NCBI RefSeq assembly: GCF_003334385.1
Contig: NZ_QOWN01000113.1
Direction: 5' to 3' (one strand)
Origin: Escherichia coli
GTDB taxonomy: Bacteria > Pseudomonadota > Gammaproteobacteria > Enterobacterales > Enterobacteriaceae
DNA length: 1,431 nt
Part shown: one piece after another, positions 1-165 of the stretch
How positions within the stretch are numbered: position 1 is the stretch's first letter
Layout: each line of letters starts with the position of its first letter
The notes under the pieces: model-generated
Database searches by the model: none
Told to the model about the DNA's origin: nothing
What the model saw: only the letters and a program-made list of their open reading frames with translations
Made by a program: the position numbers and the translations under genes

Positions 1-122
1 CGCTCAAGCAACAGCGCATTCTGGCGCATGATCCGGTAAACACGTTTGGCATTGATCGCAGGCATACCATCAAGTTCGGCCTGTCTGCGAAGCAGCGCCC
101 ATACCCGACGATAACCATACGT
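1..122 (-). pseudogene. insD: IS2 (IS3 family) orfB/InsD transposase, internal fragment of an IS2 remnant; 5' end of the gene and orfA are absent, and the 3' part continues beyond the window start
   Basis: The reverse complement of 1-122, read in frame from 122, gives [40 protein letters not shown](R). This matches my recollection of E. coli IS2 InsD (...[52 protein letters not shown]...). Upstream on the minus strand (123-140) the frame reads ...YCTVRD instead of the expected ...HHVIGELP, so similarity ends at about 122/123. There is no start codon or IS2 terminal repeat at the break. Confidence 0.85.
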
Positions 123-142
123 GTCACGAACGGTGCAATAGT

Positions 143-165
143 GATTCTTCCGCAACTTGGGTGGA
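143..165 (+). repeat. Putative left terminal inverted repeat (IRL) of the ISL3-family element
   Basis: GATTCTTCCGCAACTTGGGTGGA begins with a motif close to the GGCTCTTCCG start shared by many ISL3-family IRs. It lies about 75 bp upstream of the transposase start, a usual distance. The matching IRR is outside the window, so this cannot be confirmed here, and the length is a guess. Confidence 0.35.

Follow-up and report, generated by a model that had tools for sequence, protein, structure and literature searches.

The stretch of Escherichia coli DNA analysed here (the window, 1431 bases) has, at positions 113-165, two junctions in an ordinary nested scar made of known insertion sequences (IS). 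This arrangement is probably explained by an IS100-type end that broke IS2, by ISEc38 inserted at a target within IS100, and by a deletion to the right of ISEc38 that took away the 5' half of IS2. Read along 113-165, the order is the interior of IS2 (at about nt 607), then nt 1-21 of the IS100 left terminus, and then the core of ISEc38, which begins with its own terminal repeat at 143. The anomaly of the window is thereby removed: an internal break in IS2 and a run of apparently unassigned bases follow from ordinary nested transposition and one deletion on a virulence plasmid of enteroaggregative E. coli (EAEC).

Several public contigs contain the window in full and without a mismatch, among them contigs of E. 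coli assemblies GCA_900447915.1 and GCA_900449675.1 and scaffolds from gut metagenomes; in the locus L005 the window corresponds to positions 9785-11215. The contigs that bear the window carry genes for dispersin, aat, an ABC/FtsX transporter set, an AraC-type regulator and a chaperone-usher fimbrial operon. This gene content suggests that the source is a pAA-type virulence plasmid of EAEC.

The IS2 fragment and the IS100 tip

Positions 1-121 of the window, on the minus strand, are an internal fragment of IS2 (IS3 family) that runs from about IS2 nt 728 to nt 608 and belongs to orfB. The assignment is based on identity to annotated intact IS2, on the translation TYGYRRVW... and on the rve/rve_3 domains that Pfam detects in the open reading frame of the IS2 remnant. 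When positions 1-123 are aligned with an intact annotated IS2, 122 of the 123 bases are identical and the sequences diverge beyond. With the ends of IS2 located in the reference, window position 122 corresponds to nt 607 of 1331, far from both IS2 terminal repeats. The earlier note had claimed that the IS2 similarity stops at 122/123, at an internal position in the PTYGY codons of orfB, and both the alignment and the reverse-strand translation of 3-122 bear this out, with the small correction that the position of the break is ambiguous by 2 bp. The border between IS2 and the following element can be placed only between 121/122 and 123/124, because T122 and G123 fit both sides (IS2 nt 607-606); base 122 is the first base of the following element (TGT...). 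This IS2 copy, which does not have both of its terminal repeats, is a truncated remnant. The source plasmid retains nt 606-1331, 95.6% identical to IS2, with the right repeat present outside the window; the 10 kb to each side contain neither the IS2 5' half nor its left repeat or orfA.

Bases 123-142 match neither IS2 nor the core of the ISL3-family element that comes after them. The earlier note had left the roughly 20 bases behind IS2 unassigned, a description that fits 123-142, and these bases can now be assigned to IS100. Positions 122-142 on the plus strand, TGTCACGAACGGTGCAATAGT, are the outermost 21 nt of the IS100 left end (IS21 family). They are identical in 21 of 21 positions to nt 1-21 of a complete 1954-bp IS100, or in 24 of 24 positions if 143-145 (GAT) are counted as well. 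The reference element (L023:2527-4480) was found by searching with two ISEc38 arms joined head to head, a query that also matched 47-bp 'empty' versions. Its istA gene is annotated as IS100 family and its istB gene as IS100kyp family, it is flanked by the 5-bp duplication GCTGT, and its termini are exactly the 21-mer A (TGTCACGAACGGTGCAATAGT) and the reverse complement of the 21-mer B (TGTCAACGACGGATGAAAAGT). The first 174 nt of this IS100, counted from nt 1, are 99.4% identical to a copy on a Yersinia pestis plasmid, where the istA gene under the match is named IS100 family. As the exact match of 21 bases begins at the first base of IS100, a chance origin is very unlikely, and 122-142 is, judged by its sequence, the tip of the IS100 left end.

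IS100 was first known from Y. pestis and is common on E. coli plasmids. The window resembles this istA/istB element only from the terminal TGT at 122 through 142, or through 145; the GATCCAC half of the first end repeat, the second repeat and the right end are all missing. The remnant has neither istA nor istB and no complete multi-repeat terminal inverted repeats, and other IS100 sequence beyond nt 21-24 is absent within 10 kb in the source plasmid. An insertion of IS100 would be expected to leave a 5-bp duplication, here ATACG (window 117-121), and in the source plasmid the second copy of it has gone together with the right IS100 tip and the flank past it, so that a proof by duplication of the insertion into IS2 is not to be had. 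We infer that IS2 was interrupted by an IS100-type end rather than by the transposition of ISEc38 itself.

The ISEc38 copy and its targets

The ISL3-family element of the window is ISEc38: it shares about 99% nucleotide identity with copies that have a transposase gene annotated as ISEc38 family. Nucleotides 1-1212 of the core occupy positions 143-1354 on the plus strand, and the left terminal inverted repeat, GATTCTTCCGCAACTTGGGTGGAA, occupies 143-166 on the same strand, as established by its pairing with the right terminus. The repeat begins at 143, which is one of the two positions (123 or about 143) that the earlier note had named for an alignment of the terminal repeats. In this copy, 20 of the 23 positions of 143-165 pair with the reverse complement of the right terminus, and in the consensus copies, whose left and right repeats are GGTTCTTCCGCAACTTGGGTGGA and GGCTCTTCCGCAACCTGGGTGGA, the number is 21 of 23. 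The difference is explained by window position 144, which is A here and G in the other copies. The window copy starts GATTCTTCC, and the other copies examined start GG(T/C)TCTTCC, which resembles other ISL3-family ends. The A at 144 is what extends the identity with IS100 to nt 24 (...AGTGAT), and it may stem from a point mutation of the terminal dinucleotide or from a slightly different junction. It was found only in pAA-type contigs.

The ISEc38 transposase reading frame extends over 217-1359 on the plus strand and is cut by IS186 after codon 379 of the 539 codons of the full-length coding sequence in L001. Its matches to DDE_Tnp_ISL3 (PF01610, E = 1.6e-18) and Zn_ribbon_ISL3 (PF14690, E = 8e-7) both exceed the curated cut-offs. 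The match to the Pfam ISL3 DDE model comprises only the first 105 of its 240 positions (residues 160-257), and a weak HTH_7-like match lies at residues 293-326; residues 258-380 may thus form an insertion or a divergent region within the catalytic domain of the transposase, as the sequence comparison suggests. The truncated protein of 380 amino acids serves as an exact-match marker and was found in 91 blocks of a public assembly index.

The element that splits ISEc38 in the source is 1339 bp long (L005:11139-12477), after which ISEc38 resumes, and carries a DDE_Tnp_1 gene. We take it to be IS186 on account of its terminal repeat. Its left end occupies 1355-1431 on the plus strand, inside the ISEc38 transposase gene, and its insertion duplicated 10-11 bp, (G)GGATTTACAG, in a G-rich stretch (CCCGGGG...) in the window region 1344-1431. 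With its transposase gene split by IS186 and its terminal GG changed to GA, the ISEc38 copy of the window is dead. In one metagenome contig (L010:1723-11672), the part made of IS2, the IS100 tip, ISEc38 and IS186 is the same, and conjugative-transfer genes follow IS186 instead of the remainder of ISEc38; this arrangement is due either to recombination at IS186 or to an assembly join across the repeat.

Like the reference copies of ISEc38, the window copy has the ISL3-type transposase domains and the terminal repeat. The reference element makes an 8-bp duplication, as seen in the simple insertion at L110, whereas the window copy has flanks from two different targets, GCAATAGT on the left and CTGAAAGT on the right, and hence no duplication. 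These unlike flanks indicate a rearrangement. At L110, nt 14-440 of IS100 are followed by the ISEc38 core (1721-1722 bp) and then by nt 1-22 of IS100, and the 8 bp GCAATAGT stand on both sides of the core. This simple insertion fixes the terminus of ISEc38 at 143 and identifies 122-142 as former target DNA. Window positions 135-142 on the plus strand, which are IS100 nt 14-21, are accordingly the left copy of the 8-bp target, GCAATAGT, that ISEc38 duplicates in the IS100 left end.

The connection between ISEc38 and IS100 ends extends far beyond this plasmid. A chromosomal copy in E. coli strain M8 has the same 20 bases before ISEc38 and a related 20-mer after it, and in each of 12 further copies the 1722-bp core stands between 21-mers that are A or B. 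Because the ISEc38 end pattern gave only one match among the GTDB representatives, in Shigella flexneri, metagenomes were scanned as well, and 69 distinct end contexts were collected from complete genomes and from 120 metagenome stretches. An IS100 tip of exactly 21 bp lies directly outside the core in 56 of these 69 contexts; A is found on the left in 12 and on the right in 12, B on the left in 17 and on the right in 13. The other 13 contexts have no arms, and about 3 of the 69 are intermediates that keep the interior of IS100.

The sites that ISEc38 has used are alike. In repeat 1 of the IS100 left end the target is GCAATAGT/GATCCACACCCAAC, where GATCCAC follows the 8-mer, and in repeat 1 of the right end it is TGAAAAGT/GATCCAC. 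At nt 46/47, in the second repeat of IS100, the site reads TGAAATCA/GATCCAG (L029 and L076), and the endpoint in the IS66 tnpC gene of the source plasmid reads CTGAAAGT/GATCCGCACAGAAC, with GATCCGC after the 8-mer. Several contexts outside IS100 end in ...GAAAGT at the core. A consensus of this handful of sites suggests that the preferred target of ISEc38 may be an A-rich 8-mer directly 5' of GATCC. A further hot spot lies at nt 46/47 of IS100, the equivalent position of the second end repeat, where the local motif recurs. In the two copies joined to IS100 there (L029:4348-6115 and L076:6197-7964), the other side is the right tip with a 1-nt deletion. Other copies of ISEc38 adjoin IS66-family genes, namely a TnpB fragment and an ISEc8 transposase gene (L017:2953-3162, L019:4212 onward, and L148 at about 28100-32500), and IS66-family elements may be a recurrent secondary target.

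Insertion of one IS at specific sequences in other repeats or IS ends is known from IS30 and IS911, which use sequences resembling inverted repeats, and from IS1397, which uses REP sequences. ISEc38 is like these elements in that it has inserted repeatedly, within the terminal repeats of another IS, at exactly the same position; it differs in that its host belongs to another family (IS21) and usually loses its interior, so that tips of 21 bp are left. The literature searched for the structure of ISEc38, or for ISEc38 together with IS100, yielded only mobile-element lists from resistance-genomics papers and no description of the association. The systematic relationship of ISEc38 with IS100 tips and the apparent target rule are modestly new.

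The IS66-family host element and the probable deletion

On its right side, the ISEc38 core of the source plasmid is complete to ...GGAAGAGCC (L005:12997). No right IS100 tip follows; from the next base on, the sequence is that of an IS66-family tnpC gene, entered at codon 166. A check proposed earlier, whether IS2 resumes beyond the right end of the ISL3 element, thus has a negative outcome, and tnpC is found there instead. Comparison with an intact IS66-family element (L146) places the first 55 nt of IS66 directly to the left of the IS2 end (L005:9127-9181) and its remainder from 12998 onward. The order in the source is therefore IS66 nt 1-55, IS2 from nt 1331 to nt 606, the IS100 tip, ISEc38 split by IS186, and IS66 from tnpC codon 166. 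The whole nest lies inside this single IS66-family element (L005:9127-15586), which has kept both of its ends, is flanked on both sides by the 8-bp duplication TAGTAATA, and is interrupted a second time by an IS110-family element at 13921-15367. The nest sits between the dispersin and aat genes and the AraC-type regulator of the pAA-type plasmid.

The missing DNA comprises IS66 nt 56-1383, IS2 nt 1-605, and either the remainder of IS100 or its right tip. As IS66 nt 1-55 stand beside the IS2 end and TAGTAATA is present on both sides, these parts form a single block to the right of ISEc38. A contiguous block of this kind points to an ISEc38-mediated deletion, and its endpoint in IS66, where CTGAAAGT directly precedes GATCC, resembles in sequence the target pattern of ISEc38. 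The scar has the properties of the adjacent deletions that IS elements cause and of other nested IS scars on virulence plasmids, namely an intact IS end at the boundary, the loss of a contiguous block and no target duplication. It differs from them in that the endpoint is non-random and lies at a sequence like the preferred target of the element. The same apparent target, an A-rich 8-mer beside GATCC, accounts for both the ISEc38 site and the deletion endpoint in this plasmid.

By assembling these observations, the formation of the scar can be described in outline. First, IS2 would have entered the IS66-family element. The next arrival would have been an element with the IS100 left terminus at its end, inserted into IS2 at nt 606/607, which would be the source of the internal break; this element may have been either a full IS100 that was later hit by ISEc38, or a ready-made 1764-bp unit in which ISEc38 lies between two IS100 tips. 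Before or after this insertion, ISEc38 would have taken its preferred target 21 nt from the IS100 tip, within the transposase-binding repeats of the IS100 ends. The right end of ISEc38 would subsequently have become joined to a look-alike site in tnpC, either through intramolecular transposition (an adjacent deletion) or through recombination between this ISEc38 and another copy located there, and the remainder or right tip of IS100, IS2 nt 1-605 and IS66 nt 56-1383 would have been lost in one block. IS186 would later have disrupted the ISEc38 transposase gene.

This order of events is reconstructed from one end state, as none of the collections searched holds an intermediate. The exact junction of IS2 with the IS100 tip has no match among the GTDB species representatives, and only two-piece or partial matches among 5,426 complete E. 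coli genomes and PLSDB. The reciprocal junction, in which the IS100 right tip, ATACG and the IS2 5' half would follow one another, was not found in these collections, nor was a junction of IS100 with IS2 at this site or one of IS66 with IS2. Complete genomes contain neither the pre-deletion junction of the IS66 left end with IS2 next to the pAA flank nor that plasmid flank itself.

Each of the two explanations that the earlier note offered for the break contains a part of this history. In one of them the ISL3 element inserts into IS2, and 123 is the true left end of that element. A genuine transposon terminus does lie at 122/123, and the 20 bases do usually travel with the ISL3 element (56 of the 69 contexts), but the end was attributed to the wrong owner, since the duplication at L110 puts the end of ISEc38 at 143, and IS2 does not resume. 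The other explanation took 123-142 for a scrap of the former target of the ISL3 element and supposed that an IS-mediated deletion or rearrangement had removed the 5' half of IS2. Both points stand, with the scrap being nt 1-21 of IS100; the deletion, however, is on the far side of ISEc38, and what lies at 122/123 is no deletion endpoint: an IS100 end adjoins IS2 there in a junction of the insertion type.

Chimeric units and alternative routes

Many copies of ISEc38 are units of 1764 bp that have exact 21-bp IS100 tips at both ends. For seven units a duplication was identified: CCTCTG in L001, CCATG in L014, AGTAC in L015, TTTGT in L016, CAAGA in L020, and ATTAC and CCGGGA on a plasmid of strain M8. 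Empty sites were found for the units of L016 and L014; when the unit and one copy of its duplication are removed, the sequence that remains occurs uninterrupted in other strains, where the identity over 400 bp is 100% and 99.5%. The four copies of ISEc38 in strain M8 have 100% identical cores, two in each orientation with respect to the tips, and no intact IS100 lies on the plasmid with three of these four units. On NZ_CP019954.1 (L147-L150), two inverted ISEc38 units about 24 kb apart, at 79864-81627 and 105962-107725, have exchanged their flanks. That ATTAC and CCGGGA form pairs only across these two copies indicates that the two recombined and thereby caused an inversion. Both units adjoin ISEc12-type genes of the IS21 family.

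The arms of the units are without the GATCCAC half of repeat 1 and without repeat 2. For the IS21-family element IS5376, integration by IstA in vitro needs two complete repeats per end and generates 5-bp duplications (PMC10122671), and the 21-bp arms, which are shorter than one repeat, do not provide such ends. Movement of the units by the IstA and IstB proteins of IS100 acting in trans is favoured by the many sites at which they are found and by the rarity of intermediates. Formation of each unit in place, from an IS100 that was colonised and hollowed out, is favoured by the mixture of orientations and by the two-repeat need of IstA (PMC10122671). The broadest interpretation would make ISEc38 a specialist colonist of IS21-family ends, which inserts into the IstA-binding repeats of IS100, between their two conserved halves, and takes out the IS100 interior, with the resulting 1764-bp chimeras then spreading as units and the break in IS2 being one such insertion; as a whole, this is a tentative idea and rather unlikely. 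If it is true that the units move whole, this would bear on the minimal requirements of IS21-family ends and on the exploitation of one IS by another, as IstA/IstB or another route would then mobilise ends much shorter than the two-repeat ends that are supposedly required. The mobility of the units is the only part of this analysis that could surprise a specialist.

The same evidence bears on the manner in which the IS100 end reached IS2. A full IS100 may have entered IS2, with ISEc38 inserting later at the left-end hot spot and duplicating GCAATAGT, and with IS100 nt 14-1954, the IS2 5' half and part of IS66 being deleted thereafter. This course is quite conceivable, its chance being somewhat below even. 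It needs no unusual activity of IstA, begins with an element common on E. coli plasmids and passes through a type of intermediate known at L110 and L043, at the price of a larger deletion (about 3.9 kb versus about 2 kb) and of an IS100-in-IS2 junction that the collections searched did not yield. Alternatively, a pre-formed 1764-bp chimera, made of ISEc38 between two 21-bp IS100 tips, may have entered IS2 whole, presumably through the IstA/IstB of IS100 in trans. Such units with exact 21-bp arms at many different sites, the 5-6 bp duplications around seven of them, the uninterrupted sequence of other strains that is restored on removal of a unit and one duplication copy, the strain with at least four 100% identical copies whose plasmid holds three without an intact IS100, and the small share of intermediates (about 3 of 69) all argue for this entry. 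The demand of the IS5376 IstA for two complete repeats per end in vitro (PMC10122671), the presence of both orientations among identical cores, which fits repeated new formation, and the one-armed state of the window copy argue against it, and we hold it to be possible with distinct reserve. A third matter is the step by which the IS2 5' half was lost. Homologous recombination between direct repeats of ISEc38, one in the IS100 tip in IS2 and one in the IS66 tnpC gene, may have removed it in place of an adjacent deletion catalysed by the transposase, and the product would be identical. The right junction, in which the core is followed by CTGAAAGT and GATCC..., is exactly what a normal insertion of ISEc38 at a consensus target would give on its right side, and copies of ISEc38 do recombine, as the inversion between two units on the M8 plasmid illustrates; yet this route requires one extra insertion event, and a plasmid with the two copies was not found in complete genomes. 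It is a serious candidate that falls a little short of being the probable one.

Far less credible is the reading in which bases 123-142 are the outer part of a long terminal repeat (about 45 bp) of the ISL3 element, so that ISEc38 itself would have transposed into IS2 with its true end at 123. What speaks for a long repeat is that the 20-21 bases go with ISEc38 at most sites, that the outer arms form an imperfect inverted repeat, and that the units, arms included, form clean insertions with short duplications and existing empty sites. The arms are, however, identical to the two termini of IS100, and at L110 the 8-bp duplication stands at the ends of the core within an otherwise continuous IS100. 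The duplications outside the arms are of 5-6 bp, as for the IS21 family, against 8 bp at the ends of the core; the core can point either way between the arms, even in copies that are 100% identical; and thirteen contexts have no arms. Taken together, these points leave the long-repeat reading very improbable. A related candidate was an 8-bp duplication, ACCTCTGT, around a '1762-bp ISEc38' in L001, which again would have put the ISL3 end at 123. It was rejected as the arms are IS100 termini, and also because further copies give duplications of 5-6 bp when the terminal T/A is assigned to the element. The 21-bp IS100 tips that E. coli copies of ISEc38 usually carry could be misread as a long ISL3 repeat, as target DNA or as fragments of IS100, and such mistakes would affect the calling of IS boundaries and any inference that is based on duplications.

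Two further ideas about the orientation of the core were discarded. A single ancestral orientation of the core relative to the arms is excluded because both orientations are about equally common, also among 100% identical copies. Inversion of the core by homologous recombination within its own repeats is excluded because the T/C differences found at positions 3 and 15 of the repeats go with the orientation of the gene.

Mini-IS100 elements that consist of only two tips were also encountered, one of 47 bp at L024:2501-2547 (E. coli SMS-3-5) and one of 69 bp at L025:2501-2569. Both were produced by deletions between short repeats close to either end. These IS100 derivatives with 5-bp duplications resemble MITE-like derivatives of other IS, and share their tips with the 1764-bp units; the units differ in that their cargo is a complete unrelated IS and that mobilisation of their 21-bp tips is doubtful. 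The 47-bp element at L024 lies within an IS3-family transposase gene and is flanked by the 5-bp duplication CTGTC. The query of joined arms gave full-length matches in about 520 complete genomes.
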